DNA from: a virus
DNA: 64,000 bases
Reading direction: 5' to 3' (one strand)
Virus record (IMG/VR): IMGVR_UViG_3300027857_000001
Span: 1 to 64,000 of that record
Part shown: one piece after another, positions 21,845 to 50,760 of the stretch
Position numbering within the stretch: the first letter of the stretch is position 1
Layout of the letters: every line of letters begins with the position of its first letter
Position numbers and translations under genes: made by a program
The notes under the pieces: model-generated
Databases searched by the model: none
Told to the model about the DNA's origin: nothing
The model's input: the letters and a program-made list of their open reading frames with translations, nothing else

Positions 21845-22993
21845 GTGAGCAGCCGGGTGGTGAAGCGGGCGTACAAGTACCGCTTCTACCCGACCCCGGA
21901 GCAGGCGGAGCTGCTGAACCGGACGTTCGGGTCGGTGCGGTACGTGTACAACCGGGCGCTCGCGGAACGGTCCCGGGCGTGGACACAGGACCAGAAGCGG
22001 GTCACGTTCGCGGAAACCTGCCGGATGCTCACCCAGTGGAAAGCGGACCCGGAGACATCCTGGCTGTACGAGGTATCCAACGTCGCGCTCCAGCAGGGGC
22101 TCCAGCATCTCCAGCAGGCATACCTGAACTTCTGGGGCAAACGCTCCGGGTACCCGACGTTCAAATCGAAACGGAAGTCGCGGGCATCAGCGACGTTCAC
22201 AACCTCGGGGTTCCGCTACCGGGACGGGCAGATCACGCTGGCGAAGATGGATGTCCCGCTGGATATCCGCTGGTCCCGCCCGCCGCCCGAATGCGCGGAG
22301 CCGTCCACGGTGACGGTCAGCCGGGACGCGGCCGGACGGTGGCATGTCTCGATCCTGGTCGAGGAGACGATCGAGCCGCTTCCCCCGGCGCCAGCATCGG
22401 CGGTTGGGGTCGATGCCGGGATAACGTCGCTGGTGACCCTGTCGACCGGGGAGAAGATCACCAACCCGAAGTGCGAGAAACGGGACCGCGCCCGGCTGGC
22501 GAAGGCGCAGCGGAACCTGGCCCGCAAGCAGAAAGGCTCCCGCAACCGGGCCAGAGCGCGCGTCAAGGTCGCCCGCGTGTATGCCCGGATCACCGACCGC
22601 AGGACCGATTTCCTGCACAAGTTGTCCACGAGGATCATCCGCGAGAACCAAACGGTGATCATCGAAGACCTGACCGTCCGCAACATGCTCAGGAACCATT
22701 CCCTGGCCCGCGCGATCTCCGATGCGTCCTGGTCGGAGTTCCGCAGGCAGCTGGAATACAAGGCGGACTGGTACGGCCGCACCGTCATCGCGGTCGACAG
22801 GTTCTACCCGTCGAGCAGGACATGCTCTGCGTGCGGCCGCCTGGCCGCGTCGATGCCGCTGAACGTCCGGGAATGGGCGTGCCCCGCGTGCGGCACAGTC
22901 CACGACCGGGATATCAACGCCGCGAGGAACATACGAGCTGCCGGGCTGGCAGTGCTTGCCTGCGGAGATGGCGTAAGACCTGCCCGCACGTAG
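21845..22993 (+). CDS. tnpB: TnpB RNA-guided nuclease (IS605/IS1341 type)
   Basis: AYKYRFYPT; RuvC D (GVDAG), E (IEDL), D (DRDINAA); CxxC..CxxC Zn finger. Confidence 0.95.
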   Translation: MSSRVVKRAYKYRFYPTPEQAELLNRTFGSVRYVYNRALAERSRAWTQDQKRVTFAETCRMLTQWKADPETSWLYEVSNVALQQGLQHLQQAYLNFWGKRSGYPTFKSKRKSRASATFTTSGFRYRDGQITLAKMDVPLDIRWSRPPPECAEPSTVTVSRDAAGRWHVSILVEETIEPLPPAPASAVGVDAGITSLVTLSTGEKITNPKCEKRDRARLAKAQRNLARKQKGSRNRARARVKVARVYARITDRRTDFLHKLSTRIIRENQTVIIEDLTVRNMLRNHSLARAISDASWSEFRRQLEYKADWYGRTVIAVDRFYPSSRTCSACGRLAASMPLNVREWACPACGTVHDRDINAARNIRAAGLAVLACGDGVRPART

Positions 22994-28969: not shown

Positions 28970-29446
28970 GGCCAGGTTCTGTTCTTCTCGGCGTCAGGCG
29001 CCGGGTCCCTCCCGGAGACCATCGCCCTGTTCGCAGTATCGGGCGGGACGCTCGTGCACAGCGAGTCAGCGACGTGGGCCGGCGCGGCCGGGAGCGGCTG
29101 GGTGCGGGCGTCGTTCAGCAGCCCGCCGTCCCTCACCGTGAGCACGAACTATGTCGCCGCTGTATTCGATTCTGGTGGCTTCAACTGGTACAGCGGCACG
29201 CACAACTACTGGGACACAGGCGCCGGCTCGGGCGGCATCACTAACGGGCCGCTGTCCGCGCCGAACAACGCCGGTGCAGCGCACGGCCAGGACGCATTCG
29301 ACAACTCCGGGCCGCTGGCGTTCCCCACCACCAGCTTCCAGGCCACCAACTACTGGATGGACCCCGAGGTCACCGTCACGGCCGCGACGGCAGGGAGGCC
29401 TCCCCTGATCGCCGGCCAGGCCGTACAGCGCGCAGCCGCCTGGTAA
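28970..29446 (+). pseudogene. 5'-truncated DUF4082-like gene
   Basis: SGWVRASFSSP..LTVSTNYVAAV...NGPLSAP...AFPTTSFQATNYWMDPEV; no credible start. Confidence 0.55.
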
Positions 29447-29473
29447 CACCCTCTCAGACCGGAAGGACCCGGC

Positions 29474-29660
29474 ATGCTCTACACCGCCTGGACCAACGCC
29501 GACGTGGCCCTCACTGCGGCGACCGCCAAGACCGCACTGTACATCATCCCCCCGGCCGGGTTCGGCTACCAGCTGTGCGTGGTGGAAATCGGCGTCGAGT
29601 TCGAGGGTGCGGTCCAGGGTACCGACTGCCTGACCGAGCTCGTCGAGTCCACCGCCGCTT
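29474..29660 (+). pseudogene. 3'-truncated phage structural-type gene
   Basis: MLYTAWTNADVALTAATAKTAL...IGVEFEG; cut where the cas1 shard begins. Confidence 0.35.
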
Positions 29661-29865
29661 CGAGGTCCGCCTGAAAGGCGCGGAACTGTCGTCGGTCCGG
29701 GTCCTGGACGTGTCGCAGATCTGCATACGCGGCAACGCCATGGTGACCGCGCAGGCGCTGCGGAAGGCGCTGGCCGCGCAGATCCCGGTGTGCTGGTTCT
29801 CCTACGGCGGGTGGCTCAGCGGGATCACCACCTGCCGGGGAAGAACATCGAGCTGCGCCGCCGCC
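29657..29865 (+). pseudogene. cas1: cas1 fragment (Cas4-Cas1 fusion type), frameshifted
   Basis: RFEVRLKGAELSSVRVLDVSQICIRGNAMVTAQALRKALAAQIPVCWFSYGGWLSGITT, then in another frame LPGKNIELRRR. Confidence 0.75.
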
Positions 29866-30257
29866 GCAGCTGCGGCTTCCCTCGCCAGGGCAAGGGCTGC
29901 TTTCGCCGCCCGCACCGCATCCTCCGCGGCGATGATGGCCGCCGGGTTCCCTTGCCGCTTCGCGTACCCGAGGCGGGACTTCGCCCTCGAGAGGGCTTGC
30001 CCGGCGGACTCGGCGGCCCCCTCCGCCTCGCGGAGGGCCGCGAGGATCGGGGTAACCTGCGGGTCAGCTTCCCAGGCGGCGTCCTTCTCCTCCTGGTACT
30101 TCCGCTCGGCCGCGACGTCCTCGTTGGCCAGCTCGTGCACGCGGCGGACCTCTGCCATGACCGGGTCCTGTACCGGGCCCCGGACCCGGTACCGGTACGC
30201 GATCGGCACGGTCCCAGGCGCGGCGCCCTCTCCGGTTCCGTCCATCGTGATCACCAT
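29802..30257 (-). pseudogene. N-terminal ~130 aa of a Cas12m (V-U1/V-M)-like effector, truncated against the cas1 shard
   Basis: AYRYRVRGPVQDPVMAEVRRVHELANEDVAAERKYQEEKDAAWEADPQV plus a long helical hairpin; aligns with my recollection of the MmuCas12m N-terminus; no RuvC. Confidence 0.55.
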
Positions 30258-30413
30258 CCGGGGTTGTCTGTTAACGGTCAGAAAGGATACTCCCGGAGTC
30301 CGGGATAATGTGCCGGTATGACGGGCTCTGCAGTACTTCGCCCGGCATGCGCGCCGCCCAGGGACCCGAACCCTGGTGTATGCCATCACGGCCGCCTTCC
30401 GTACTTCGCCGCG

Positions 30414-31256
30414 TCAGCGCTGGACGGTCCCCGTCAGCGCGTCCCACAGCTGGCTGCTGCTCACGTCCATCGTCGCCGTCGTGTTGTCCGGGAAGATGCC
30501 GCGGAAGAAGCCTGTCAGGTTCGTCACCTGGAGGACCGGGCGCGGCTGGTCGGTCGGGTAGCCATCCGGGTAGGTGAGGACGAACGGGTGAGAGAAGTTC
30601 GTGTTCGCCCCGTTGATCAGGGGAACGCCGTCCTCAGTGCCCGTCGACTCGCCGAAACTGTTGCTGTCCCCGAACTGCTCCGGGCCGCCGCTGCCATCGA
30701 AGGCGTCGACGATCCACACTGTCCTGCCGGAGACGCCGCACGGCTGCAGCGTCACCTTCTCGCCCGCAACAGGGGTGGCGGCGAGTCCGGCGCACTCGCC
30801 GGTCGCGGCACCGAACGGGGTGTACTCGATCTCGTACGCATCCAGGTTCGCGTTCCCGTCGCTTTCGTCGGTCCCGAACACGCATGTCGGGAACGCGACA
30901 GTGCCCGCGATGCAGCCGTAGTGCAGAGAGGTCATCGGGCTGACAAGGCCGGCCTGGGCGAAGTCCGATACCGTGCCCTGATTCTCGAAGACGAAGTCCT
31001 CGGCCGGGTCATGGTTCGACTCGCGGAACAGGATGATCGACGTACCAGTCGCGACACCCTGCTTCGCGGAGTCCATCAGGAAGCCCGGGTGGCCGGTAAC
31101 GCCGTCGCCGAACTGGTCGCTGAAAACGTCCACGCAGGACGGCCCGCAGGACGGGGTTGCGGCGTAGGCGGTGGCGGCGAGGGTCCCGCCGCCGAGGATG
31201 CCTGCCGTGAGCGCGGTCAGCCCGAAGAAGTACTTGCTCCTGTGCATGAGCTTCAC
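30414..31256 (-). CDS. Secreted Cys-containing protein (ricin-B/lectin-like)
   Basis: Signal peptide ending ATAYA; paired Cys; TLQPCG...TVW motif. Confidence 0.55.
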   Translation of the reverse strand: MKLMHRSKYFFGLTALTAGILGGGTLAATAYAATPSCGPSCVDVFSDQFGDGVTGHPGFLMDSAKQGVATGTSIILFRESNHDPAEDFVFENQGTVSDFAQAGLVSPMTSLHYGCIAGTVAFPTCVFGTDESDGNANLDAYEIEYTPFGAATGECAGLAATPVAGEKVTLQPCGVSGRTVWIVDAFDGSGGPEQFGDSNSFGESTGTEDGVPLINGANTNFSHPFVLTYPDGYPTDQPRPVLQVTNLTGFFRGIFPDNTTATMDVSSSQLWDALTGTVQR

Positions 31257-31395
31257 AGCTCGTTTCCTTCCGTTTGTGCAGCGCAGCCCCTGCGGCGGCG
31301 CTCCGGTAACCGTCCCCGGGTTGCGGCGGGGAGGGAGTCCTGAGGTCCGGCTGCCCGGATGGTCCGGGCCGGTGCCGCAAGCTCACCCCGGGCAG

Positions 31396-31695
31396 TCACG
31401 CCGACCCCTTCGTGAGCTTGCGGCGCGGAGTCCTGGCCTGGAGTGTCCCGTCGCCGGGATCGTCGGCCTGGCGGCGCTGAGGCGCCCGTGACGGCAGAGA
31501 GGCACCCGGCGCCGGCGCCCTGGCGCCGGCGCGGGCGATCTCGGCGAGCTGCTGAGGGGTGAACAGCGTCGTCCGCCCGAGCTTCGTTGACGGGATCGCT
31601 CCGGTCCGCGCGTGGACTTTCAGCCAGTTGGCGGACTTGTGCACGATGGGTGACGCCTCCTCGGCGCTGAACAGAACGGGTGCCCCGGAGGTCAT
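31396..31695 (-). CDS. HTH_17 excisionase-like protein
   Basis: FSAEEAS..VHKSANWLK.HARTGAIPSTKLGRTTLFT. Confidence 0.7.
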   Translation of the reverse strand: MTSGAPVLFSAEEASPIVHKSANWLKVHARTGAIPSTKLGRTTLFTPQQLAEIARAGARAPAPGASLPSRAPQRRQADDPGDGTLQARTPRRKLTKGSA

Positions 31696-31874
31696 GACGC
31701 CTTCTTTCCTGCGCGCTCGCACGCTTTCAGCCACGCCTCGACCGCCGCCGGCCTGTAGCGCACGCCGTGCCCGACCTTGATCCAGTCCGGCCCGGTGCCT
31801 CTCGATCGCCATGCGGCCAGCGCGCTGACCGTGATCTCCCCGCCCAGGTACGCGGCCAGCTCGGCTGACGACAT
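31692..31874 (-). CDS. AlpA/Xis-like HTH protein
   Basis: SSAELAAYLGG..TVSALAAWRSRGTGPDWIKVGHGVRY. Confidence 0.75.
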   Translation of the reverse strand: MSSAELAAYLGGEITVSALAAWRSRGTGPDWIKVGHGVRYRPAAVEAWLKACERAGKKAS

Positions 31875-32021
31875 GAGCGGCTCCCTCTGCGGGGCCACGT
31901 CGCGGTCCTGCACCGGCACCTCCAGTCATCCGTTCCGGGTTTCCCCGTCCATGCTGAAATCATCTTGTCACGACTATGGCGGGATTGGCAACGAAACCAT
32001 GATCATGTAATGTCTTGTCAC

Positions 32022-32522
32022 ATGTCGCCAGGTGATGAGGAGCCGCAGCGGGAGCATCCGCGGGAGGTCGGCGATAACGTGCGCCGGTACCGGGAGTTCC
32101 GGGGCATGAGCCAGGAAGCCCTCGCCCGCGAGATGGTGAAGCGGGGTTTCCCCTGGTTCCAGTCCACGGTCTACAAGGTGGAGCACTCGGGGCGGCGCAT
32201 GGAGATGTACGAGGGCCGCGCCGTATGCGACATCCTCGGCATCTCCGTCGACAGGCTGTTCTGGGCCGGCGATGAAGCTGCCGAGATGGCGCTGGTCGAA
32301 GGTGCCATCTCATCGCTGAGGCAGGCGCACGACGAGACCGCCCGGGCGGTCGCGCGGCTTGACGCGGCCGCGCGCGCCGCCGCGCGCACCCTGAGGGACC
32401 GCGGCGGCAGCAGGTACGAGCGGGTCCGGGAGACCTGCGGCGACCTGGAGGCCGAGCTGGGATCGTCCACGCTCGACCTGGCCGTCGCGAGAGCGGGGGA
32501 GATCCTGGATGGTGACAGCTGA
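32022..32522 (+). CDS. XRE-family repressor
   Basis: VRRYREFRGMSQEALAREM...QSTVYKVEHSGRR; divergent from the xis genes, coupled to int. Confidence 0.8.
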   Translation: MSPGDEEPQREHPREVGDNVRRYREFRGMSQEALAREMVKRGFPWFQSTVYKVEHSGRRMEMYEGRAVCDILGISVDRLFWAGDEAAEMALVEGAISSLRQAHDETARAVARLDAAARAAARTLRDRGGSRYERVRETCGDLEAELGSSTLDLAVARAGEILDGDS

Positions 32523-34168
32523 TGGCGTACGCGGAGCGGGTGAGATCCCCGAAGGGCGACTACTGGCGCGGCCGGTACCAGGACCCTGACGGCCGGTACC
32601 TCACCGTGCGGGACGCAGGCGGCCGGGTCATAAGGTACCCGGCGAAGCTGGACGCCGAGCATGGTGCCGACGACGCCGAGTCAGCGGTCCGCGGCGGCGA
32701 CTGGATCGACCCGCGTGCGGGGCTGGTCACGTTCGGGGAGTGGGCCAGCGCGTGGTACAGGAAGCAGGACCTGGCCGAGTCCACGATGGAGAACTACCGG
32801 CAGCACCTCGTGTACCACCTGCTGCCGTATTTCCAGCACAAAGCCCTCGCCGACATCAGCGAGGAGATGATCGGCAAATGGGCCCGGTCAGAGAGGGCCA
32901 GGGGCTACGAGCCGGACAGCATCAGGACCTGGCGGGCCACCCTGCACACCTGCCTGGAGGACGCGACAGGCACGCACATCAGCGTGAACCCGGCCACCCG
33001 GAAAAGGGGCAGGGGGAAGAGATCGGGCCGCGCCGCCGGGGACAGCGCCGAGGAGAAGATGATCACCGACCCGCTCGGCGTCCTGCTCATCGCCGAGCGG
33101 ATGGCGATACTCTCCGGCCGCGACGACGAGCTCGTCATGGTCGTCACGGGATTCTGGGATGCGCTGCGGCTCGGCGAGACTGTCGGCCTGGAGAGCAGGT
33201 ACGTGCGTCCCCGGACACTGCGGGTGGACTGGCAGCTTCACGAGATCGGCGGGAAAGACCCCGGGACCGGCGCCCCTGGCGGCCGGCTGGTGCGCTGCCC
33301 GCCGAAAGACGGATCGAGGGGGACGCTGGACCAGCCGCAGTTCCTCGCCCGCCTGCTGGCCGAGCACATCATGCGGACCCGGCCGGAGCCATGCCCCTGT
33401 CACGGGAAGACCTACGTGTTCCGCGGCATGGGCATCCCGCGAGGCCCGCGCGGCTCCATGTCGATGCGTGAACTGGCCGCCCTCGCCGGGGTGTCGGAGA
33501 CCGTGGTCGCGACGGTGCTCGGCAAGCCGGGCCGCGTCAGCGAGCAGACACGCCGTCACGTCGAGGCTGTCATCGCCGCGTGCGGCTACCGGCGGGAGGC
33601 GGGGACGGACCGTCCCGCGTGGCACTGGCGCAGGTCCGCGTTCGAGGAACTGTTCACGGCTGCGGCATCGGGATGGCTCCCGGCCCGCGCGCCCCTGCCG
33701 CGCCGCCCCGTCCCGGTGGCCGGGGACTGGCCGGGCATGCGGGTGCGGGGCCGCAACGCGCAGGGCCGGGCGCAGTTCTGCTGGCTTCCTGTCGCCGAGG
33801 GGCTCACTCCTCACGGGCTGCGCCACTCGGCGAAGACGTGGATGGAGGAGGAGGGGATACCGGAGGTGCTGAGCGAGCAGCGGCTGCGCCACGAGATCGC
33901 CGGGATCTCCGGCCGGTACCGTCACGTGACGCAGAGGATGCGCGACGAGCTCGTGGCTGCGATGACGGCGGCGTGGGAGGGCGCGCTGGACGCGCGGCTG
34001 GCGATGTCGGAGCGCTCGCCGGCAGCGGTGCTCGACACGCTGCTGCGGGAGCGGCTCGAGGCGCGCAGGCCCAGGGCCGTCCCCAGGAATTCCCCAGAAA
34101 CAAGTGAAGCGGTGCTCCCGTTTCCTCGGGGCACCGCCTCTGACCTGGGTCGGGGTGGCCGGATTTGA
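32522..34168 (+). CDS. int: Tyrosine integrase with an inserted LacI-type HTH
   Basis: DALRLGE (R), PKDGS (K), HGLRHS (HxxR), LRHE...RYRH (H, Y); insert MRELAALAGVSETVVATVLGKPGRVSEQTRRHV. Confidence 0.88.
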   Translation: MAYAERVRSPKGDYWRGRYQDPDGRYLTVRDAGGRVIRYPAKLDAEHGADDAESAVRGGDWIDPRAGLVTFGEWASAWYRKQDLAESTMENYRQHLVYHLLPYFQHKALADISEEMIGKWARSERARGYEPDSIRTWRATLHTCLEDATGTHISVNPATRKRGRGKRSGRAAGDSAEEKMITDPLGVLLIAERMAILSGRDDELVMVVTGFWDALRLGETVGLESRYVRPRTLRVDWQLHEIGGKDPGTGAPGGRLVRCPPKDGSRGTLDQPQFLARLLAEHIMRTRPEPCPCHGKTYVFRGMGIPRGPRGSMSMRELAALAGVSETVVATVLGKPGRVSEQTRRHVEAVIAACGYRREAGTDRPAWHWRRSAFEELFTAAASGWLPARAPLPRRPVPVAGDWPGMRVRGRNAQGRAQFCWLPVAEGLTPHGLRHSAKTWMEEEGIPEVLSEQRLRHEIAGISGRYRHVTQRMRDELVAAMTAAWEGALDARLAMSERSPAAVLDTLLRERLEARRPRAVPRNSPETSEAVLPFPRGTASDLGRGGRI

Positions 34169-34364
34169 ACCGGCGGCCTCTTCGTCCCGAAGAAAGTAGC
34201 CGTAAGTTCACGGGTTACGTTAAACCAGGATGTTCTCACTGTTCCGACCAGGACGTTTTCGGTTCGCCAGGTCAGAGGCCCAACGGCAAAGTCGCGTTCA
34301 GCGGCGTTCAGCGATATCCGCTCACGTTCACGGCTAGTCTCGTCCCCAGGAATTCCCCAGAAAC
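34078..34364. repeat. 24-bp direct repeat flanking the att core (integrase arm sites)
   Basis: CGTCCCCAGGAATTCCCCAGAAAC at 34078-34101 and 34341-34364. Confidence 0.75.
34146..34191 (-). other. attP core = 3' half of tRNA-Pro(CGG), starting at the anticodon loop
   Basis: Reverse complement TTCGGGACGAAGAGGCCGCCGGTTCAAATCCGGCCACCCCGACCCA; no tRNA 5' half upstream. Confidence 0.85.
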
Positions 34365-34484
34365 GCCGTCCGCCGGGTTGCCGAGTCGGCTTGCCGCCGT
34401 CAGGCAGAACCCCATCCACGAATGCCCGGAGACTGACTCGCACCGTCTCGTGGTCGCAGCGATCGGCGCGATCTCAAGATGGAT

Positions 34485-35618
34485 GTCTCAGCAGATACGG
34501 CGCTGAGCGGACGTTGCGGCCGCAGAGGCCCCAGGGTCGAGGCGCTATTGAGGTGGATGTCTCAGCAGGTACGCACCCGAGCATGCGTTACCACCGCAGC
34601 CCGGCGGAGACTCGTGTTGCGTCGGCATCACGTCTCAGCGTTTACGCAGCTGAGCATGCGTTGCGACTTGACCGGGGTAGCGGTCAGGCCGACCAGGTAG
34701 GCGTCGTCTCAGCGTTTACGCAGCTGAGCATGCGTTACGACAACGCGCACGAACACAAGCGCACCTGGGACAGCCGGGTCTCAGCGTTTACGCAGCTGAG
34801 CATGCGTTGCGACCAGGACGAGGGCTCCACCCGCGGCCAGTCTCAGCTCAGTCTCAGCAGGTACGCAGCTGAGCATGCGTTGCGACGCCGCATGCACTCA
34901 TGGCACGGGTAGGTGGTGGTGGTCTCAGCAGGTACGCAGCTGAGCATGCGTTGCGACTCTTACAGGGTATGCTTCACCGTTCCTGGGATAACGGAGGTCT
35001 CAGCAGGTACGCAGCTGAGCATGCGTTGCGACCGCGCACACGCCACTGGCTTCGCTGCCTCGGCGTGGGTCTCAGCAGGTACGCAGCTGAGCATGCGTTA
35101 CGACGTCCAGGGTGCCTTCAGCCGCACGCTCCACCCACAGCGTCTCAGCAGGTACGCAGCTGAGCATGCGTTGCGACGCCGCATGCACTCATGGCACGGG
35201 TAGGTGGTGGTGGTCTCAGCAGGTACGCAGCTGAGCATGCGTTGCGACCGCGGAGTGGACATCCCGCCCGACGCATGGGATCTGAGGTCTCAGCAGGTAC
35301 GCAGCTGAGCATGCGTTGCGACTAGCGCTAAATTAGTGCTAACTTACCGTTGCGTGTGGTCTCAGCAGGTACGCAGCTGAGCATGCGTTGCGACCATGAG
35401 CGCGCCAGGATTGCCGAAGCGGTGCTTGAGTTCGTCTCAGCAGGTACGCAGCTGAGCATGCGTTGCGACCTTAACGTTGCCCTAGATCGAGTGCAACCAT
35501 TAATCCCGGTCTCAGCAGGTACGCAGCTGAGCATGCGTTACGACCGTAGGACAAACGTGAGGAGGCGACGACCATGGACATGGTCTCAGCAGGTACGCAG
35601 CTGAGCATGCGTTACGAC
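34485..35618 (-). CRISPR. CRISPR array: 16 repeats of 36 bp, 15 spacers of 35-39 bp
   Basis: Repeat (- strand) GTCGCAACGCATGCTCAGCTGCGTACCTGCTGAGAC; starts on + at 34485, 34559, 34632, 34706, 34778, 34851, 34922, 34997, 35069, 35142, 35213, 35287, 35359, 35434, 35509, 35583; first two degenerate (trailer). Confidence 0.97.
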
Positions 35619-35800
35619 CGCTCCCGGTTTTCACCGGGTATGGCCTGCGGGAATGCGGTGGCTTGCGAGCGGTCCTGAATGCTGGCCTCTAGCGGCTTAA
35701 CCGCCGCTCAATCCAGCCAGGGTTCGTGCCGTGTGACCTGCACGCGAGCGGCCCCCGGGGGTTCCGGGCACCACCGGGCCGCTCGCACGGACAGCCCGGG
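35619..35800 (-). promoter_or_regulatory. CRISPR leader
   Basis: Non-coding, adjacent to the non-degenerate end; inverted repeat GCGAGCGGCCC...GGGCCGCTCGC typical of actinobacterial leaders. Confidence 0.6.
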
Positions 35801-36012
35801 GGACGTTCAGTACAGCGGACAGCAGCAGAGCTGTCCCGGGCAGGCTCCCGCATCTGCGCCGGCCAGGGATGCCTGGCTGCGCGCGGTGAACCTGCCGCCC
35901 CGTCAGTGGCGGACGGGCACGCCATGGGTTATGGACTTGTCAAGAAACAGCCTGCACCGGAGTCTACCGGCGCAGGCTTAGCCTGTCGTCAGGCGTGGCC
36001 GCCGTGAGCCGG

Positions 36013-36672
36013 TTATGCCGTTGCCGGGACCGGCTGGATACCGCCGCCTCGCGCCTCAGCGTACGCACCGGCCCAGTCCCGGGTGAAGTACAGCCGGTCA
36101 CCATCCGGGGCGACGCAGCCATGCTCGGTGAGCACGTCGATCTCCTCCGGGAGCAGCACCGACGGGTCGTAGCCGGCGCGGTCGAGCGCGGTAGAGGCGT
36201 CGTACAGCATCTCGGCCACGGCCTCCAGCCCTGCCAGCCGCTCAGCGGCGGCGTCGCGGCGTATCTCCAGCTCGCGCAGCTGCCTCTCGGCGATGCGCAG
36301 GTCGCTTTCCGCGTGCCTGAGCTCCCGCGTGGCGGCTGCCTTGCGCTGGTCGAGCCGTCGTTTCCGTGCGTTGAGCCACCTGCGGTGCTGCTCCATCCGG
36401 AGCTTCGCCGGGACCTGCGGCCGTTCCCTGGCCTGCTCCAGGCCCTTCTCCGAGATCCGGTAGAAGATCGGCGGCCGGCCGGGCTTCCCTGTCGGCATGG
36501 GCTGCCGGTCGATGATGCCCTCGGCCACGCCGGCTTCCAGCCAGCGCCGCACTGTGCTGAGAGACGGGTTCCTCGTCAGGGCCAGGCCCTTGTTCCAGGG
36601 CCTGCGCGGCTGCTGTTTCGCGACGGCCGCGGTGATGGCCAGTGCGGTCTTCAGCTTGCGGCGGTTGCTCAT
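36013..36672 (-). CDS. wHTH plus coiled-coil protein
   Basis: STVRRWLEAGVAEGII...GKPGRPPIFYRISEKG. Confidence 0.55.
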   Translation of the reverse strand: MSNRRKLKTALAITAAVAKQQPRRPWNKGLALTRNPSLSTVRRWLEAGVAEGIIDRQPMPTGKPGRPPIFYRISEKGLEQARERPQVPAKLRMEQHRRWLNARKRRLDQRKAAATRELRHAESDLRIAERQLRELEIRRDAAAERLAGLEAVAEMLYDASTALDRAGYDPSVLLPEEIDVLTEHGCVAPDGDRLYFTRDWAGAYAEARGGGIQPVPATA

Positions 36673-36857
36673 GCCGCCAGCTTCCGCTGCCGTTCGCGCA
36701 GAGCCCGCTGGGCCATGACCCTCGCGCAGCCCTTCGAGCAGTACACGGCGTCAGCCCGGCGGTTCCTGAACGCGCTCCCGCAGTCCGGCCGGGCGCAGGT
36801 CCGTCTCTCCGGCATCGGCTGCTCGCAGTGGGGGCACAGCTCGGTGGTGCGCTTCAC
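36669..36857 (-). CDS. Small Zn-finger protein
   Basis: CPHC...CARPDC...AVYCSKGC. Confidence 0.55.
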   Translation of the reverse strand: MKRTTELCPHCEQPMPERRTCARPDCGSAFRNRRADAVYCSKGCARVMAQRALRERQRKLAA

Positions 36858-37196
36858 GTCGGCAAGGTATCACGGTGATACGTTCCGTGCGGGCTGAAAT
36901 ATCACGCCACGGTGAGGGAATAAGCGGTTACCACCTGAGGTCCGGTGCCGTATGCCTGTACTTCCCGTCCGGCCAGGACGCACGTTCCTCGATCTCGGCG
37001 GCACGGGCCCGCCATTCCCCGGACAGTGCCAGTTCTTCGGGTGACGAGTCCTCTGGCCATGGCGGGTACAGGCCGGCGCTCCTCTGCTCATCGGTCCGCC
37101 GGTCGTAGAGCAGCGCCAGCGGCAGCGAGTACGGCCTGGCATTCGCCGACCGTCTGCGCGGCCGGGATCGCGGTTGTGTAGTTCAGCGGCCTGCCG

Positions 37197-37697
37197 CTAG
37201 CCATCGCTCCCCTCCATCTGCTTCCGTACTGCCTTCTCTACGTCATCAGGTAGCCGCCACAGGCCGAGAGCACCCCGGCACGGGACCGGCTCAGCGAGCG
37301 GGCGGACGTTCTCCAGGAGCCAGTGGTACTGATCGCGGACCGCCCACGGCGAGCACAGCGGCCGGGTCGCGCCGCACGTCCCGCCGAAGTCAGGGCTCAG
37401 GTGGCAGCCGGACAGGCCGGCTACCGCGACTATGACGCCCTGGCCGGATGCGGCCTCATCGATCTCGAACCCGCACGCCTCGACGGCATCGAGGATGAGG
37501 TAGTTCTCCACGTCGCTGCGGTCCGGTCTGGTCTTGCTCGCGTGGATGGCAATAAGGCCCCGGTAGGCCGTTCCCCACGTGCGGTTCTCGACCGGCTTCG
37601 CCCCGATGGCGATCGCCCAGGCGTACGGCTGCCTGATCGAGAGCGCCCGCATGGCGTCCGGCTTGCCAGCTGGCATGTCAGTGAGCATGCGGGCCAT
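37197..37697 (-). CDS. ASCH domain protein
   Basis: ALSIRQPYAWAI..GAKPVENRTW...RGLIAIHAS...PCRGALGLW. Confidence 0.88.
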   Translation of the reverse strand: MARMLTDMPAGKPDAMRALSIRQPYAWAIAIGAKPVENRTWGTAYRGLIAIHASKTRPDRSDVENYLILDAVEACGFEIDEAASGQGVIVAVAGLSGCHLSPDFGGTCGATRPLCSPWAVRDQYHWLLENVRPLAEPVPCRGALGLWRLPDDVEKAVRKQMEGSDG

Positions 37698-39718
37698 CGC
37701 CAGCTACCTCCGGGTGTCTCCCGTTCACGTAGAGCCGCATCTCTTCGACAGCGTTGCCCACCGCTTCGCCGACGCTGGCCACGCCCGCATCGAACCCGGC
37801 CGCGTAGGCGTCCCGGTCGCCTGGCACCAGGAGCGTCATCGTGCGGCCTTCCGCTCGCCGGAGCACGTCGTACCAGTCCGGGTGCTGGCTATCCCAGGGG
37901 GTGTCGGTGGTGTACCAGTTGCCGATGTTCGCCTTGTTCGACACCCACACCTCCTGACGCGGCTCGCCCCAGTCGATGGCGACCACGGAGCCGGTCGGGG
38001 GTTCCGGCTTCAGATACTGGTCAGGTGCCATCGCTGTCCTCCTCGTCGTCGTAGCAGGTGCACGAGCAGTCGCACTCACCGCAGTCAGGGCACGCCTCGC
38101 GGGTGTAGACGCACAGGGAGCACGTCATCAGTGGTCCTCCTTCAGCCTGTCGAGCATGGCCAGCCGCAGCACGCATTCGGCCTCGGTCATCCGGTGGCCC
38201 GCGTCCCACGTGCAGCGGGAGCAGATCAGGGTGCCGTCCTGCGCTGTCTCGGGGGTCGCCGACAGCGGATGGGTCGTGAGAGCTTCCCGCAGCGCGGCCA
38301 GGGTGCGGCGGAGATCGAAGTAGGCGGTGCGCCGGAGAGTGGAACCAGACAGGCTCAGCTTCGCAATGTTCTCTTCGTTGCGCTGCTCGATCGCGTCGAG
38401 TGCGGCGGCCAGGTCGTCAGCCACTTGCGCCCTCCTCCCCGAGCAGCTCACGGGTGATCGCCTCGCGCAGGTCACGGGCACACGCGGCGCGGACCCAGCC
38501 GCGATCCTCGGTCAGCGCCGACACCGGGCCGTCATCGATCTCGTCCCACTTCCCCGGCATCCCCAGTACCGCGTCCAGCGCGGCCAGGAGCCGGGGGACA
38601 TCAGCGGCGGATGCACCCGCTGCCGCCGGGCTGGCGTATGCGAGCGCGGCCCGGTTCCTGATCCTGGCCAGCTCGGCACGGACGGGACCGGGGTCTGGTG
38701 CGTGCCCTGCCGGGTCAGTCATCGAACCCGTCCGCGTACGAGCACAGCAGCCATGCCGGCTTCTCCGCGACCGGCGTCAGGCCGAGCGTCCCGAGCGCGG
38801 CGGCGAGCTGCTCGTCCCAGCCGCGCCGGGTCGCCTCGTCCGCGCCGAGCAGTCCGCCGGCGTCCTGCGGGTTGCCCCGGCTCGCCTCCAGCGCCTTCGC
38901 GGCCAGGATGAACATCGGCGCGGTATCCGAGCAGTGGATGACGATCGTGACGCCGAGCAGCTCCAGCGCCTCCTCGCGGTGCTGGTAATAGTCCGCCGAG
39001 CCGTCTTCCGCAGTGAAGCCGGCAGCGGCCAGAAGCTCGTCCTCGGCTTCAGCGGCGAACGCGCTCAGGTCATCCCAGTGGCTGCACCGCTCGTCGTGCC
39101 AGGGGACAGCCAGCTCCCCGTACTCACCGACCTCGCGGACCTTCCACTCGTCGTCGGCGCTGCCCAGGTCGTAACCGTAGGCGAGGATCGCGTCTGTTGA
39201 CCGGCCCATTCGTTACTCCTTTCCCGCCGTTACGGCGGCTGTCTCATCCCACTGCCCGTATTCGGCTAGCGGGATCACGCCGAGCTTCACGCCTTCAGCG
39301 AGCACAGTCGCCGCGGTGAGCGCCAGCAGCGCGTGCACCTGGGCGAGCTGCCCGGCCTGGACGTGATGGTTACGAAGCTCGCCCTCGTAGTCCGCGGCGG
39401 CCATGGCGAACCGCTCAGCTATGCGAAAGTGCTCCGGTCCTGTCATCGGCTGTCCACTCCTGTCGTTGCGGCGGTCATCTCAAGCAGCTCCAGCCCGTAC
39501 ACCCAGAGCCGCACGTGCGTCGTGAACCCGGCTGAGGCCCGCACCGAATACCCGGCGCACTCCTCGCACTCCATCCGGGTCCGCCTCTGCGGCGACAGCC
39601 CGGTCAGCCAGTCGGCGACGACCAGCCGGGTGGCGGTGGCGTGCCGGCACGTCTCGCAAGTCAGCGGCTGCTCAGGGCCGGCTGCCGCAGGCACGGCCGC
39701 CGGATCGGCACTCATCAG
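37678..39718 (-). other. Run of short, overlapping hypothetical phage genes (e.g. 37678-38031, 38021-38128, 38128-38481, 38715-39209, 39213-39446)
   Basis: Tightly packed - strand ORFs with ATGA/GTGA couplings. Confidence 0.5.
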
Positions 39719-40056
39719 GGCCTCACCCCGGCCTCGTCGACGCTCCCGCGCACCCCCATGCGCCCGAGCAGGCCCATGGTCCGCAGCACCCGCAGCACCG
39801 GCTCGGCGGTGCACGCGATGGCGAACTGGCTGCCACGGGCCTCCTGACGTTTCATCGCGCCCACCAGGACGCCGACGCCCACGTTGTCGAGGAACGTGAC
39901 GCCGTCCAGGTCGATGACGAGCGGGGCAATGTTCTCCTCGGTGATGCTCCTGGCCAGTTCGCGAAGCTGCGGGGCGGTGCGGAAGTCCACGGACCCGGCG
40001 ACGGTGATGACCACCAGGTCGTCAGACGTCTCGTGGCTGAGCCTGATCGCGGTCAC
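39715..40056 (-). CDS. STAS anti-sigma-factor antagonist (BldG-like)
   Basis: VAGSVDFRTAPQLRE...LVIDLDGVTFLDNVGVGVLVGAMKR...VLRVLRTMGL. Confidence 0.85.
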   Translation of the reverse strand: MTAIRLSHETSDDLVVITVAGSVDFRTAPQLRELARSITEENIAPLVIDLDGVTFLDNVGVGVLVGAMKRQEARGSQFAIACTAEPVLRVLRTMGLLGRMGVRGSVDEAGVRP

Positions 40057-42634
40057 TGCCCGGCCTCCAGTTCGCTCATCTTCGCCAGCGCTGACATCGC
40101 GGCTCCGGTGTGGGTGCCCCACGCGATCGCGTCAGCGACCTCCCCGGAAGCCTCTGCCGCATGAAGCGCGGCCTCGGTCTGCTCTGCGCTGAGGGTCAGG
40201 TAGCCCTTCAGCGCCTCCCAGCGGGCCTCTGCGGCACCAGGGAACACCGCGCCGAGCGAGACGGCGAACTCTTCCAGCCATTCCTCGGCGGCCAGCTTGA
40301 GCACCTCTGGGTCCTCGTCCCGCCGGTACCTCTCGCAGAGGACGGGGAACGCCGAGCTGAGCGTCCAGCACCTGGCGTCTCCCCAGATCATGAACATCCG
40401 GTCCAGGGTGCCGGCGTGGCCGCTCCATCCGCCGTACCGGGCCTGCTCCCAGCGGATGCGGGCGGTCCCGGTCACGAGAACTCACCCGGCACGAACCGGT
40501 TTCCCTCCGCGTCAAGATGCTCGCCCCGGTTCAGGTCGTTCCGGCCGCCGCGCCGGTCCTCGATCAGCTTGAGCAGGTCCGCCTCCGGTACCTGGCGGCC
40601 GTGCTCGTCGTAGATACCGCCGAGGTCCAGCAGCTTCCGCCAGGACGCGAAGTCGTTCACCGGCTCGGTAACCACATCCGGGCCGTCCCATTCGGGGTTC
40701 GGGTAGGCGCGGAACGTGAAAGCCCAACCGGTGCTGGACTTTCCGAGGTGAACCCAGCGCGAGCACTGCTTCTCGCACGCACCCTCGGGGCGGACGTAAT
40801 AGTTGGTCCCCATCAGTCAGTCCTTCCGTGCGGTGACGATCAGGCGGCTGAAGTACCCGCCCGCCTCCCCGCTGCGCTCAACCGCGTACCCGGCCGCCTC
40901 GATGACCTGCGCGTAACGCTCCTCCATCTCGGCGGAGCGCTGGCGGTCGGCGTCAGCGGAGTGGAACCGACCGTCCTCGTGCCCGACGTGCACACGACCG
41001 CTCTCGTAGCCGCGGACGACGTAGCCCTCACTGTGGTTGCGCCAGCCCTTGACGCCGGTCGCGCTCGACTCGGACCGCTCAAAACCGGCACGCTTCAGCA
41101 GGGCGCTGATGCCCTGCGGGGTGGGGGGCTTGTGGGTCATGACCTTCTCCCGAAGAGGACAGACATGATTGTCAGGCCGATGCCGTAGATCAGCAGGAAG
41201 TAGCCCAGGGTCGGGACCAGGGCGCTCAGGTGGTGCTGGTGGGTGAGCACCGCTGTGCCCCAGAAGGTGCACAGGAAGGCGATGCTGAGCTTGAAAGCCG
41301 CAGTCTTGTCCATCATCAGTCCTCGTAGTCGGTGCGCTCTTGCGCATAAAGATCTTTGGTCTCGCGGTCCGGCACGGCCGGGGAATCAGCGGTCCACCCG
41401 GAAGCGATCAGGTCAGCACGGAGGGCGGCGAGCTCCGGCGGCAGCGGTCGCTCAGCGGATGCCAGCGCGGAACCGTCTGCTGTTGCTCGCCGCGCCTTGG
41501 GCAGCGAGGAGAACAGGCCGCAGTCGGTGCCGGTCGGCAGGTGCTCAACCGTCCACGGGGTTCCGGTGTCCTCGACTCGCGTGAAGGCGTACTCGCCGTC
41601 CTTCGAGACTGCCGCCCAAGCCTCGGTCCGGCCGGTGCGGAACGACGGGTGCTGCTCGGTTATCTCGACCGGGGTGAGGCGGGTCCGGGTACTGGTCACC
41701 GGCCAGTCCCCTCCCTGTTCGGCATCGCCACGCCGAGGACCGCGGTTACGATCTGGTCCAGCGCACGCGGGATCGTGCCGGAGAAGCCGTTCCCGGCCCC
41801 CGGGAACGCGATGCTGCGGCGGACGTCATCCTCGCCCCACCGCTGGACTGCGGCGTAGGTGATCCCGGCGCGGTCAACCGCGTAGATCGAGCGGATCTCC
41901 CTCGCGTCAGGGCGCTGCTCGATGCGGTGCGCCATGGAGTCGGCCAGAGCCTCGCTCCGCCGCGCCGTACCGGGCTTGCCGCCGTCGATCTCCCACGCCT
42001 CGCAGCGGAACGCGGCACCGTGGAGCCCTTCCGGCGCAACACTGGACAGCAGCGAGGACTGACTCGTGCTGATCGCGGCGAACCGCGCGAGCACGGCCGG
42101 CGGCCGGTCCGCCGACCACATCTCGTCGGGCAGCGGAAGGGCGGAGATCCGGGGCTTGCCGCCCTCCACGTACAGGAAGCACAGGGCGGGGGCCTCGTCC
42201 CACTCGCGCCGGGCGAGCAGCTCGGCTGCGAGGGTGTCCGCGATCAGGTGGTGCAGTCGTCCCATCAGTCAGTCCTCCCCGTCCGGGCCTTCAGCGATGT
42301 ACTCCTCAAGCGCGCAGGCGAAGGTCTCGACGCGCTCATCAGTCACAAGCACTGCGGCGCTGGCGTGCTTCACCAGGAACTCGCGGACTTCGGTCCGGTC
42401 CACTTTCGGGGCGATTGCCGCGAAGATGATGTCGGCGGGGGTCTTCTTGGCAGTCACCGATCAGCCCTCCTGTCCCTGGTACCACGCCTCGGCGGCGACC
42501 TCGCGGTCTGCTTCCGCGCAGCAGGCGTCGTCTTCCGCGTCCGTGAGGACATCACCGTCCGTCTTGCCGAACAGGCGCTCAGCGGCGTTCTGGTGGGCGG
42601 ACGTCCAGCGGTCGTCCTCGGCTGCACTAGTCAT
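40053..42634 (-). other. Run of hypothetical phage genes (40053-40475, 40472-40813, 40817-41140, 41696-42265, 42269-42457, 42461-42634)
   Basis: Coupled - strand ORFs with no recognisable family. Confidence 0.45.
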
Positions 42635-42691
42635 GTGACTAGTATTGCGCGGACATTGCCCTCTAGTCAAGTGCCTAGTAGCATCGAGACT

Positions 42692-42901
42692 ATGGTTCTT
42701 GCCGTGCACCATCTCGTCGGCTCCCAGGAGATTGGGGCAATGCTCGGTGTCGGCCGCCAGCGGGTACAGCAGCTCATCAAGCGCCACGACTTTCCTGTAC
42801 CCGAGGTAACGCTCGCGATGGGGAAGGTCTGGAAGCGCGCCGACGTGGAAGAGTGGGCACGGGGGCGCGGTCGCCTCATTGCTGACGAAGCTCCCGCGTA
42901 G
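42692..42901 (+). CDS. AlpA-like HTH regulator
   Basis: LVGSQEIGAMLGVGRQRVQQL...DFPVP...GKVWKRADVEEW. Confidence 0.75.
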   Translation: MVLAVHHLVGSQEIGAMLGVGRQRVQQLIKRHDFPVPEVTLAMGKVWKRADVEEWARGRGRLIADEAPA

Positions 42902-42906
42902 CCCGC

Positions 42907-43458
42907 TCACGCCGCCCCATCCCAGAGCGTCAGCGGCATCTCCCGGCAGGCAGCCTGCGCCGGCCGGGAAACCGACGTCCACGGCCTGGCCGACGGGTTC
43001 AGCACCCGCTCCCACAGGTACCGGGTAACTCCGCCGGTCCCGTGGTCCTCGCGGTACCGCCGCGACGACTCGAAGTGGTCAGTCCGCGGCCTGCGCTCGG
43101 CGATGAGCACGAAGCCGGCGGCCCGCAGGCTGGCCCTCGACTCGCCTTCCTGCGTGTACGTGATGATCCGGCCCCACCCGAGCGCCTTCGCGGCCCGGGC
43201 GGCGGCACCGTAGAGCATGGAGCAGGCATTATCGGTGCCGTCCGTCGTGCAGCGGGTCACCTCCAGCGTCACGCCGTCCTGGTTGCCCGGGCCGCTCGGC
43301 CTGCCGCTGATCGCCACGCCTAGCAGGACATCCGCGTCGTCCGCCACGCCGACACTGAACTTGTGGCTGGCCGGGAGGACGTGGCCGTGGTGCCGGTGCC
43401 ACATCGCGGTGAACGCTTTCGCGTCGTCGCGGGAGACGGTGACGATGCGGAGGGTCAC
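42907..43458 (-). CDS. XF1762-family (GNAT-like) protein
   Basis: WHRHH...HKFSVGV...GVAISGRP...LEVTRCTTDGTDNACSMLYGAAARAAKALG..RIITYT. Confidence 0.7.
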   Translation of the reverse strand: MTLRIVTVSRDDAKAFTAMWHRHHGHVLPASHKFSVGVADDADVLLGVAISGRPSGPGNQDGVTLEVTRCTTDGTDNACSMLYGAAARAAKALGWGRIITYTQEGESRASLRAAGFVLIAERRPRTDHFESSRRYREDHGTGGVTRYLWERVLNPSARPWTSVSRPAQAACREMPLTLWDGAA

Positions 43459-44297
43459 GCCGTCTCCAGCCCGTCGAACAGGCTGCCCTGCGCGAACGGG
43501 CGGTTCGACCACAGAACCTCGGTTCGCCGCGCGGTCCCGTCGTGCGAGTTGCCGGTGAACGCCGGGAACTCGACCCGGTGCCAGCCATCGTAGGCCGATG
43601 AGTACAGCGGCGAGTCGTAGCCCGACAGGACGACTGCCGCCCGGGCCGCCAGCAGCGCCTCGGCAAGCTCTGCGTGCTCAGCCTCGGTGCGCATCTCGTG
43701 CTGGTACGACGGGCCGCGGCCGGCCGACGAGCGGGTCTCCTCCAGATACGGAGGATCGGCGTAAATCAGGACGTTCTCGTGGCGGCCGTAGCGGCTGATG
43801 ACCTCCAGCGCGGGCAGGCATTCCAGCGAGACACCCGCGAGCCTTGCCGCAGCGGGAGCGATCCGCCCGGCGTAGGCCGCGAGATAGTCCGGCATCGTGG
43901 TCCGCGAGCCGCGCGCATCCTGGTAGTGCCTCCAGCCGGTGAGGTGGTGCAGCTGCCCGCTCCGGCCCTGGGTGAGCCGTATCCACACGCGGCGGGCCCG
44001 CTCCAGCTCGTCCGTGCCTTCCGCGATCCGGATGGCGTCAGCGTGCTCTGCCCGCGAGTGCGGAGTCAGGAAGCATGCGCGCTCAAGGTCGTCCGGGCGT
44101 TCCCGCAGCGTACGCCAGAACGCCACGAGATCGCCGTCGAGGTCACTGACCGTCTCCATCATCGACTGCGGCTTGGCCAGCAGGACCGCCAGGCTTCCCG
44201 CGAACGGCTCGACGTAATGCTCGTGCTGCGGCAGCAGCGAGGCGATCTCGGCGGCAATCCGCGTCTTGCCGCCGAAATACGTAAAGGGGGGCTTCAC
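43455..44297 (-). CDS. DNA adenine methyltransferase (Dam/D12 class)
   Basis: YFGGK, YVEPFAGS, IYADPPY, VVLSGY. Confidence 0.9.
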   Translation of the reverse strand: MKPPFTYFGGKTRIAAEIASLLPQHEHYVEPFAGSLAVLLAKPQSMMETVSDLDGDLVAFWRTLRERPDDLERACFLTPHSRAEHADAIRIAEGTDELERARRVWIRLTQGRSGQLHHLTGWRHYQDARGSRTTMPDYLAAYAGRIAPAAARLAGVSLECLPALEVISRYGRHENVLIYADPPYLEETRSSAGRGPSYQHEMRTEAEHAELAEALLAARAAVVLSGYDSPLYSSAYDGWHRVEFPAFTGNSHDGTARRTEVLWSNRPFAQGSLFDGLETA

Positions 44298-45074
44298 GGC
44301 TAGAACAGCTCCTCAAGCGCCTTGGCAGCGCCGCACTCCTGGCAGCAGTAGCCGCCTTCGCCGTCGGCGCGGATCTTGTCCCCGAGAGCGATCCGGCCGC
44401 CGCAGCCGGAGCAGGAACCCGGATAGCCGGCCCGGAACCACGGCGAGCCGGGCATGACCGGGTGGTGCTCCCCGGCGCGTGCCCGTTCCTCGGCACCAGT
44501 GCAGTGGCCGCACATCTCCGGGGGAAGATCCGACATCTCGCAGCGGATCATCAGAACGGTGCTCCCTTGTCAATGAGGGCCGGGACGCTGGGCACTCTGG
44601 CCAGCCGCCTGGCGGCCGATGTGAGCGAGCACCGCACGTCCCCGCGGATCCGCTCGCGCTCCTCATCGGCGAGCGGGGTCCAGCCGCGCAGGTCGTACAT
44701 CAGCTTCTGCATCAGCCGGACGGGAGGGCGCCACACGACGCGGCCGTTCACGACGATGGCGCACGAGTGCACCCACTCGTCGCGGACTGCCTCCAGGAAC
44801 GTGCACTCCGCGACAGGGGCGTCGGTGCTCCAGGATGCATCCGGCCGGTGCTCCTCTGCGGTCCAGAAGAACGCCGCGAACCCCTCATAGGTGCTCCAGC
44901 ACGACGGGTGGTTGATCCTGCCGTTCGTCAGCCGGCTGTAAGTCATCAGGCGCAATCCGCCGGCCGGGCCGAGCGCCTCAGCCGCTCCCGGCACGACGGC
45001 CAGGAGGTCAGCGTCGAAGGTGTCGCACCACATGCCGGAAGGCTGCCCCGGCGCCGTCTCGGGCTGCCCGGCGA

Positions 45075-45431
45075 TCACGACGGCTCCACGATGTCGAGCA
45101 GCCGCTTCAGCGCATCATTCTCGCCGTCGCTGAGCGGCCGGAACCCGGCCAGGACGGTCTCCAGCTCCGCACGGGGCACCGTGACCATGCCCTCCGCAGC
45201 CCGGCAGCGAGAAGCGGCCGGCACACCGTGGCCTGCGAGGAGCGCATCCGCTGTCGTCAGGTACAGCGCGGCGAACGCGGCCAGCTCCTCGGCGGACACC
45301 CGCCTGTTGCCGCGCTCTATCTCGCTGACCGCTGACCGGCGTATCCCGAGGCGGGCCGCTGCCTGCTCCTGCGAGATGCCGAGGCCGACCCGGAGGTCAC
45401 GGAGGGTTGCGGCAAGATCAGCGGCGGTCAT
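45075..45431 (-). CDS. XRE HTH protein
   Basis: LRDLRVGLGISQEQAAARLGIRRSAVSEIERGNRR. Confidence 0.8.
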   Translation of the reverse strand: MTAADLAATLRDLRVGLGISQEQAAARLGIRRSAVSEIERGNRRVSAEELAAFAALYLTTADALLAGHGVPAASRCRAAEGMVTVPRAELETVLAGFRPLSDGENDALKRLLDIVEPS

Positions 45432-45642
45432 GAGACGCTCCCGTCCTGCGCGCTGGCCAGCCTGCGGTGGAACGTGACGGCCGGGCACGCGCCGGAGCGG
45501 TACTTCAGTGTCATCCTGGACGTCCCGTCCTTCTTGTACACCGCTGGCACCCACGTGCATGTACAGGCGTGGTGGATCTCGGGTACCGAGAGGAGGACCG
45601 CCGGGCCGGAGAAGGGTCCGTTCTGCTCGCGGCGCTGGAAGG

Positions 45643-50758: not shown

Positions 50759-50760
50759 GC

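Follow-up and report, generated by a model that had tools for sequence, protein, structure and literature searches.

Array, leader and integration module

The 64,000-nt window analysed here covers positions 1–64,000 of a 135,301-bp IMG/VR virus record, which is rated complete and whose termini overlap by 127 bp, giving a circular assembly. The genome has a G+C content of ∼69% and carries a portal gene and an integration module, and the host type of this temperate phage is actinobacterial. No close relative was found among the deposited phages searched, and searches of IMG/VR with a Cas12m profile and with the phage integrase returned no related phages.

A CRISPR array of 16 repeats of 36 nt and 15 spacers occupies positions 34485–35618 on the minus strand. 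The repeats start, in plus-strand coordinates, from 34485 to 35583 with a start-to-start spacing of 71–75 nt. Ten of the 16 copies are identical, four carry 1–4 changes, and the two leftmost copies carry 7 and 4 changes. Since the decayed repeats are on the left, the low-coordinate end is the trailer, the leader lies on the right and the array is read on the minus strand. This orientation is further supported by the published crRNA sense of Cas12m repeats and by a related locus (L023, described below), where cas12m, leader and array share one sense. In the crRNA sense, the repeat (34997–35032, minus strand) contains a 6-bp stem that ends 2 nt before the 3′ end, confirming the account given in an earlier sequence-only reading of this DNA, which had set this structure apart from a type I tail. 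The spacers are 35–39 nt long and 14 of them are unique; the sixth and tenth from the leader have the same sequence, as a 107-nt unit (34851–34957) recurs at 35142–35248. When the 135 kb were scanned with up to 8 mismatches allowed, no copy of the repeat was found beyond the array.

The leader (35619–35948, minus strand) is rich in GC and in hairpins, and its 5′ end carries a conserved TTGACA hexamer. Its ∼93% identity to the leader of a homologous locus, L022, comes with four 1-nt indels, and it is therefore considered noncoding. A terminator-like hairpin (35949–35985, minus strand) insulates the leader from an upstream gene for a 219-aa protein, and it is at the edge of this hairpin, at 35985, that the homology to L022 stops. 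Together, leader and hairpin (35619–35985) make up ∼365 nt of noncoding sequence. Leader blocks are conserved in five further loci of the same Cas12m clade, and the leader fold has a z-score of −3.06. A consensus promoter scan of the leader returned no sigma-70-type promoter, the canonical −10 box being absent, and Rfam held no family matching the repeat or the leader. The 219-aa protein was considered as a possible piece of Cas12m and rejected.

Phage-family genes form the right flank of the array and leader, while a tyrosine integrase gene and an attP-like site form the left flank. The integration module (31692–34168) comprises an excisionase-like gene (31692–31919, minus strand), a repressor-like gene (31965–32522, plus strand) and the gene for the tyrosine integrase, which has an inserted LacI-type HTH (32522–34168, plus strand). 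The attP-like site (34078–34364) consists of a tRNA 3′-end fragment (∼34143–34190, minus strand) flanked by identical 24-nt direct repeats (34078–34101 and 34341–34364) that are possible arm sites, and the tRNA-fragment site is presumably attP. The array starts ∼295 bp from the tRNA fragment, and its trailer ends ∼120 bp from the attP-like site. The layout described by the sequence-only reading, with 16 repeats, a leader and a decayed trailer near attP and phage genes on both sides, was therefore borne out.

Repeat type and related Cas12m loci

Eight Cas12m crRNAs are listed in Table S5 of Bigelyte et al. 2024 (PMC11013384). In its crRNA sense, the phage repeat aligned over its full length with these eight published repeats, with a mean column identity of 74%. 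Its 5′ end is the one common to the Cas12m family, and its seven 3′ bases equal those of the Ms, Tf and Un repeats. In the Cas12m2 structure (PMC10442227), the two stems that are drawn for repeats of this family form a pseudoknot. All 10 pairs of both stems are predicted to form in the phage repeat, with the second stem stopping 2 nt before the spacer. In the alignment of all nine repeats, 86.5% of cells were paired, compared with 24–44% in slid controls, and seven pairs showed compensatory changes. Because the handle is a pseudoknot, minimum free energy folding of a single repeat was not informative. The 3 kb to each side of the array contained no anti-repeat, which fits a system without a tracrRNA.

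Scanning metagenome contigs with the repeat core identified one contig, L022 (Ga0070730_10030963, 4,040 bp). Along its minus strand, this contig carries the C-terminal part of cas12m, ∼650 nt of other sequence, a leader, a 16-repeat array and a gene for a Cas4–Cas1 fusion. The C-terminal 305 residues of the Cas12m are on the contig and match Cas12m2 (8hio, E = 2.7e-15) and GoCas12m (8pm4, E = 3.4e-12), and the Cas4–Cas1 fusion matches 7mi4 (E = 1e-70). The consensus repeat of the L022 array is the same as the phage repeat at 34706. In contrast to the repeats, the two arrays have zero spacers in common, which indicates that spacers were acquired after the phage and L022 lineages split, i.e. that the system was active in the past. 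L022 and the phage contig L029 (JGI) come from one metagenome, Ga0070730 (sample 3300005537), and an intact sister V-M system is thus present in the same community.

As the published repeats match and a homologous array is linked to cas12m, the array is, with high confidence for an assignment made from sequence comparison, of type V-M (Cas12m). The Cas12m-type repeat proposed by the sequence-only reading is upheld by the same two lines of evidence. Although the array is of V-M type, an adjoining effector gene is missing, and the locus falls short of a complete V-M system.

The closest full-length relative of the L022 Cas12m is P0002, a protein encoded on contig L023. It matches Cas12m2 (E = 4e-42) and, in RuvC motif I, has retained the histidine that characterises the H-D-D variant. 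On L023, 18 tRNA genes are followed by cas12m, a leader, a same-family array in the same orientation with more than 30 repeats, and an integrase gene. Another contig, L027, combines sheath and tube genes, a serine recombinase gene and cas12m. On L025, a WhiB/GntR module shares 35–62% amino acid identity with that of this phage, and another small protein shares 71%. Yet other Cas12m relatives lie in contexts of chromosomal appearance. Together, these loci suggest that a rare actinobacterial clade of H-type Cas12m proteins often resides on temperate phage-like elements, beside integrases or recombinases.

Compared with the V-M systems of MmCas12m2 and GoCas12m (PMC10442227, PMC11013384), the phage repeat likewise has 36 nt, a two-stem pseudoknot handle and no anti-repeat within 3 kb, and homologous arrays are likewise linked to Cas12m proteins, whereas the effector of the phage itself is an N-terminal stub. 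The effectors of the related clade are larger, with 659–818 aa in the full-length relatives of the L022 Cas12m compared with ∼600 aa, and contain an insertion. The leader is also unusually long and conserved. Systems V-U1 to V-U5 typically lack acquisition genes (PMC11013384), whereas the L022 locus has a Cas4–Cas1 adaptation gene.

Fragments of cas genes in the phage

A 5′ stub of cas12m lies at 29802–30254 on the minus strand, 4.3 kb from the array. It is a 150-codon ORF, of which residues ∼4–137 correspond to the N-terminus of Cas12m (a homologous part of ∼135 codons), while its tail enters antisense cas1 sequence. The stub matches residues 21–125 of GoCas12m (8pm4, E = 3.3e-4) and, in comparison with full-length P0002, shows 48% identity over residues 1–104 (E = 5e-17). 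Longer relatives of the stub escaped a word-indexed search but were recovered by an exhaustive HMMER search of 1.84 billion protein representatives. The latter gave 18 matches: the stub itself and 17 Cas12m-like proteins or fragments, which aligned at or near their N-termini and up to stub residue ∼137.

When ten Cas12m relatives were compared with the whole genome by tblastn, solely their first ∼105 residues were matched, at 30245–29925 on the minus strand. Searches with these ten relatives and with the Cas1 and TnpB/Cas12 zinc-ribbon models of Pfam yielded no intact cas gene, either in the window or in the remaining 71 kb. The sequence-only reading had likewise reported no intact cas gene in the 64 kb; this stands, with the correction that the window holds two intact TnpB genes, neither of which is a Cas12m. 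Its statement that no effector accompanies the array extends to the whole 135-kb record, in which the 5′ stub is all that was found of cas12m.

Convergent with the stub and abutting it is a shard of cas1 (29654–29844, plus strand), which retains ∼63 codons of a Cas4–Cas1 fusion. The shard matches PF01867 (E = 8.5e-10), aligns to residues 249–301 of the 7mi4 Cas4/Cas1 protein and shares 97.8% nucleotide identity with positions 1–136 of L022. Its orientation relative to the array is inverted in comparison with L022. The left breakpoint of the shard coincides with the right end of an exact 678-bp duplicate (28981–29658, no strand assigned), a copy of genome positions 124328–125005, and this abutment is a sign of decay. 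Between these remnants and the array lie a gene for a 280-aa protein of unassigned function, the excisionase-like, repressor-like and integrase genes of the integration module, and the attP-like site.

Origin and present role of the array

With a cas12m stub and a cas1 shard in the same genome, the simplest explanation is that a complete locus decayed, not that an effector-less cassette was designed. From the sequences compared, the array is probably the remnant of a complete phage-borne V-M locus, and we hold this with good, if slightly lesser, confidence than the type assignment. The leader and array would then be the leftover guide module of a V-M system once complete in this temperate actinophage, and the former phage locus would have included cas12m and a cas4–cas1 adaptation gene. 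Rearrangements in the island beside the integration module would have destroyed the protein genes, their product being the ∼135-codon cas12m stub fused tail-to-tail to the ∼63-codon cas1 shard. The dead shard is 97.8% identical to L022 and the leader ∼93%, which argues that the loss was recent. After a recent loss, a perfect-looking array needs no selection to explain it. The array and the cas remnants may still have had separate origins, as the remnants lie beyond the integration module and the shard is inverted.

We favour the explanation that the array is now an inert, recently orphaned relic over its use in trans, and give it a probability of roughly 0.5. Gene loss would have been recent, and the array would now be inactive by itself. 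If it is transcribed from the leader on the minus strand, the V-M pseudoknot handle would form in each repeat, and the pre-crRNA could be processed and used, but solely by a same-clade Cas12m supplied by another element in the same cell. Such a borrowed Cas12m would attach to PAM-flanked DNA and, leaving it uncut, block its transcription or replication, a mode of binding without cleavage that has been established for MmCas12m and GoCas12m (PMC10442227, PMC11013384).

The strongest competing explanation is that the prophage maintains leader and array as a guide cassette and uses the Cas12m of its host or of a co-resident element against competing phages or plasmids. We consider this a real possibility, yet one that falls short of our preferred view. 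In its favour, 14 repeats remain intact, as does the leader, which is insulated by a terminator-like hairpin. The array also sits at the attP-proximal end of the prophage, which is where prophages keep expressed accessory genes. Furthermore, L022, with an intact cas12m, the same repeat variant and a leader of ∼93% identity, occurs in the same metagenome as L029. All three observations count against an inert relic in that they fit continued use in trans equally well. Clostridioides difficile prophages carry arrays without cas genes that rely on host Cas proteins. Virus-borne arrays that work with host Cas proteins have also been described in archaea, where viral mini-arrays without cas genes do so (PMC6858448). 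Like these orphan arrays of viruses and prophages, the locus studied here consists of leader and array on a temperate viral genome, without an effector or adaptation gene. The known arrays match the type I system of a known host and their spacers target competing viruses, whereas the present array is of V-M type, has 15 spacers compared with 1–2, and is accompanied by cas fragments that mark recent loss.

Several results weigh against use in trans. The presence of cas12m and cas1 fragments in this genome indicates decay, not design, and conservation of the leader does not exceed that of the dead cas1 shard. The effector clade is also very rare, and no host partner was found in the genomes searched. 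A search of IMG/VR with repeat halves gave no match. In 185,579 species genomes, a 19-nt pattern from one repeat half gave 11 single chance matches and no array, and a Cas12m profile found nothing in 401 genomes (a one-phylum sample centred on an actinomycete MAG). Given this rarity (18 of 1.84 billion representatives, none of 401 genomes and no array in 185,579), a partner is unlikely in any given host.

Targets were sought as well, and the spacer search proposed by the sequence-only reading found none in the records covered. In a sensitive-mode array search of phage and plasmid records, neither repeats nor spacers were matched, and 20-nt seeds of the two newest spacers had no match in IMG/VR. 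The phage spacers did not match L022, L023 or the other fetched loci, and the spacers of those loci did not match the phage. Against the phage itself, the spacers gave short matches only, the longest being 16 nt at 129135–129150, PAM-proximal in the duplicated spacer. As no protospacer was found, no PAM could be derived. The proposal that the phage supplies guides to a Cas12m encoded elsewhere may still hold, since an intact system with this repeat and leader occurs in the same metagenome, but the phage's own stub and shard make decay the simplest reading.

The composition of the spacers offers a hint about their targets. Three of the 14 have a GC content of ≤55%, compared with 3.2% of background windows (p ∼ 0.009; ∼4e-5 when the L022 and L023 spacers are added), and the newest spacer contains a ribosome-binding-site-like GGAGG motif followed by ATG. 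These features hint that the targets are promoter-proximal, as would be expected of an effector that binds without cutting, although the low-GC spacers could instead reflect targets of lower GC. A more specific proposal is that the attP-proximal guide cassette, equipped with a promoter, borrows a DNA-binding, non-cutting Cas12m from the host or a related co-resident element, for example of the L022 type, and silences the promoters or 5′ ends of competing phages, saving the cost of an effector gene. We think this unlikely on present evidence. If it is true, the low-GC and RBS-like spacers would reflect selection for promoter-proximal targets. As Cas12m silences and does not cut, borrowed guides would give a prophage a cheap, non-lethal means of repressing its rivals.

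The preferred interpretation, that the array is a recently orphaned remnant, makes it, as it stands, an ordinary case of decay in a system of known kind. Orphan viral arrays and V-M systems are already known, and a V-M array of an actinophage just past gene loss is a new case. The nearest precedent is the V-M locus of myxophage MV-1, the first phage-encoded Cas12m reported, in a 2026 preprint (bioRxiv 10.64898/2026.09.14.751636). Both are phage-borne V-M arrays for which no protospacers were found. MV-1 has an intact 610-aa D-E-D Cas12m and no adaptation gene, whereas the phage analysed here has lost its effector, and the relatives of that effector form the H-type actinobacterial clade. The phage is a natural test case of whether an array without an effector is retained for use in trans or is simply decaying. 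The by-products of the analysis may outweigh the array itself, namely the rare H-type Cas12m clade on phage-like contigs, a V-M locus with Cas4–Cas1, and a long, structured and conserved leader.

A different origin, by imprecise excision, would make the array and leader host DNA, taken from a host V-M locus beside a tRNA attB by specialised transduction and unrelated to the cas fragments. The distance of only ∼120 bp between the array trailer and the attP-like site and the abrupt end of the L022 homology at 35985 are compatible with such an event. We nevertheless consider it improbable, because the trailer in L022 leads into cas4–cas1 and not into a tRNA gene, and because the phage has both cas12m and cas1 pieces of the same system, with a shard 97.8% identical to L022. 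In addition, the phage-like contigs L023 and L027 bear the same Cas12m clade beside integrases or recombinases. Taken together with the cas pieces in the phage, these contigs make a phage-resident system a simpler source than capture from a host.

Only a very slight chance is left for the array being of another type (I or III), or for an assembly chimera having joined bacterial DNA to the phage. The adaptation gene of L022 is a Cas4–Cas1 fusion whose best solved relative comes from type I-G, and the 135-kb circle contains the exact 678-bp repeat, which leaves room for errors in the global order of the circle. Against another type, the 8-nt 3′ handle of the ATTGAAAC kind found in type I/III is absent from the repeat in both orientations, no cas6/Cascade or Csm/Cmr genes were found near the array, and both the sequence and the two stems fit Cas12m repeats. 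In L022, cas12m sits upstream of the homologous leader, and cas12m and cas4–cas1 are the linked genes.

Against a chimera, the array is connected to the same phage genes, with 100% identity, in two other assemblies, of which one covers the entire array. The JGI contig Ga0070730_10000230 (71.5 kb) is identical over 29539–40168 and spans the whole array. The ENA contig k141_249079 (71.5 kb) is identical over 34851–46672 and stops at the internal 107-nt duplicate, and k141_682369, also from ENA, covers 29518–34772. The recurrence of these junctions in several assemblies supports the physical linkage of array and phage that the sequence-only reading had assumed. The JGI and ENA contigs end within the 678-bp duplicate. 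As the 135-kb circle passes through this repeat, its global order rests on the assembler, whereas the neighbourhood of the array is unaffected.

It is equally far-fetched that the array serves one of the three TnpB nucleases of the phage, as a guide source for TnpB or for a transposon–CRISPR intermediate. TnpB is the ancestor family of Cas12m, and all three genes are intact: two lie in the window (21845–22993 and 50659–51948) and the third, whose nearest solved proteins are Cas12f (9nzq, E = 2e-26), at 104.9–106.0 kb of the record. However, the genes are at least 11.5 kb from the array, no repeat-like or anti-repeat sequence was found near them or anywhere else outside the array, and the repeat belongs to a family that is elsewhere linked to cas12m. 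In TnpB/omega-RNA systems (IS200/IS605), the guide is encoded at the 3′ end of the TnpB gene itself, and the phage array shows no such link. The TnpBs were therefore rejected as users of the array, having no link to any repeat. None of them is a Cas12m, the likeness being limited to the zinc-ribbon and RuvC core, and two of the three are ordinary ISDra2-like TnpBs over their full length.

An adaptation gene beside a related array

L022, a 4,040-bp contig from the same metagenome as the phage contig, carries a type V-M locus, the genes of which lie at L022:3-1061 and L022:3123-4040, both on the minus strand. This locus includes an adaptation gene of its own, encoding a Cas4-Cas1 fusion and located downstream of the array, in contrast to the V-U1 to V-U5 systems, from which acquisition genes are typically absent (PMC11013384). 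The leaders of the L022 and phage arrays are ∼93% identical, yet no spacer was common to the two arrays when they were compared, which implies that spacer acquisition has been active recently. A 62-nt stretch directly preceding the conserved block of the L022 leader (L022:2477-2536) is 85% identical to window 50775-50834, in the 5′-terminal part of the TnpB gene that the phage carries at 50.7 kb. This stretch may be what remains of an insertion-sequence end located where the L022 and phage sequences part.

Leader and duplicated spacer of the phage array

The leader of the phage array (window 35619-35948, minus strand) is unusually long (about 330 nt) and GC-rich, and its predicted fold is more stable than those of shuffled sequences (z -3.06). 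In our leader alignment (A5), several blocks were conserved across six loci, even though the Cas12m proteins of these loci are only 40-58% identical. The conserved blocks include a hairpin with an alternative pairing: its 5′ arm can also bind another copy of the 3′ arm that lies farther downstream. The leader may act as a conserved leader RNA or resemble an attenuator.

The array has a single duplicated spacer (window 35178-35212 and 34887-34921). Its first 16 (PAM-proximal) bases match the phage's own genome perfectly at genome 129135-129150, within a gene of 428 aa. A 16-base self-match was reached by only 2 of 300 shuffles, but part of the matched sequence consists of a CAC repeat. Unlike known Cas12m PAMs, the bases upstream of the matched site are neither T-rich nor C-rich.

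Duplication, TnpB genes and the putative integration site

An exact direct duplication of 678 bp (window 28981-29658 and genome 124328-125005) comprises one entire gene of 130 aa together with codons 1-61 of another, of 168 aa. The right end of the window copy coincides with the breakpoint of the cas1 shard, the Cas4-Cas1 remnant of the phage. Since the JGI and ENA contigs that also cover this region terminate within the duplicate, the overall arrangement of the 135-kb circle hinges on how the assembler resolved it.

Three intact TnpB genes are present (window 21845-22993, plus strand; window 50659-51948, plus strand; genome 104954-106038, minus strand). Two of the encoded proteins are ISDra2-like along their whole length; the third is most similar to solved Cas12f proteins (9nzq, E 2e-26), and the ORF listed for it extends too far at the N-terminus.

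In the tyrosine integrase (window 32522-34168, plus strand), the N-terminal SAM-like domain and the catalytic domain are separated by a LacI-type helix-turn-helix (PF00356, residues 314-358). A tRNA 3′ fragment is flanked by two identical 24-nt direct repeats, each including the palindrome GGAATTCC: one at window 34078-34101, inside the 3′-terminal part of the integrase gene, and the other at window 34341-34364. The two repeats may be arm-type sites for the integrase within attP.

Cas12m relatives on phage-like contigs

Cas12m genes of this rare clade were found on three phage-like contigs: L023 (53-10127), with an 18-tRNA cluster and an integrase; L027 (157-7905), with sheath and tube genes and a serine recombinase; and L025 (1-10286), with a WhiB/GntR/FtsK-type module sharing 35-71% amino-acid identity with the studied phage. 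In L023 and L027, the integrase or recombinase lies within a few kb of cas12m. The N-terminal region of this Cas12m clade has only 18 representatives among 1.84 billion proteins.
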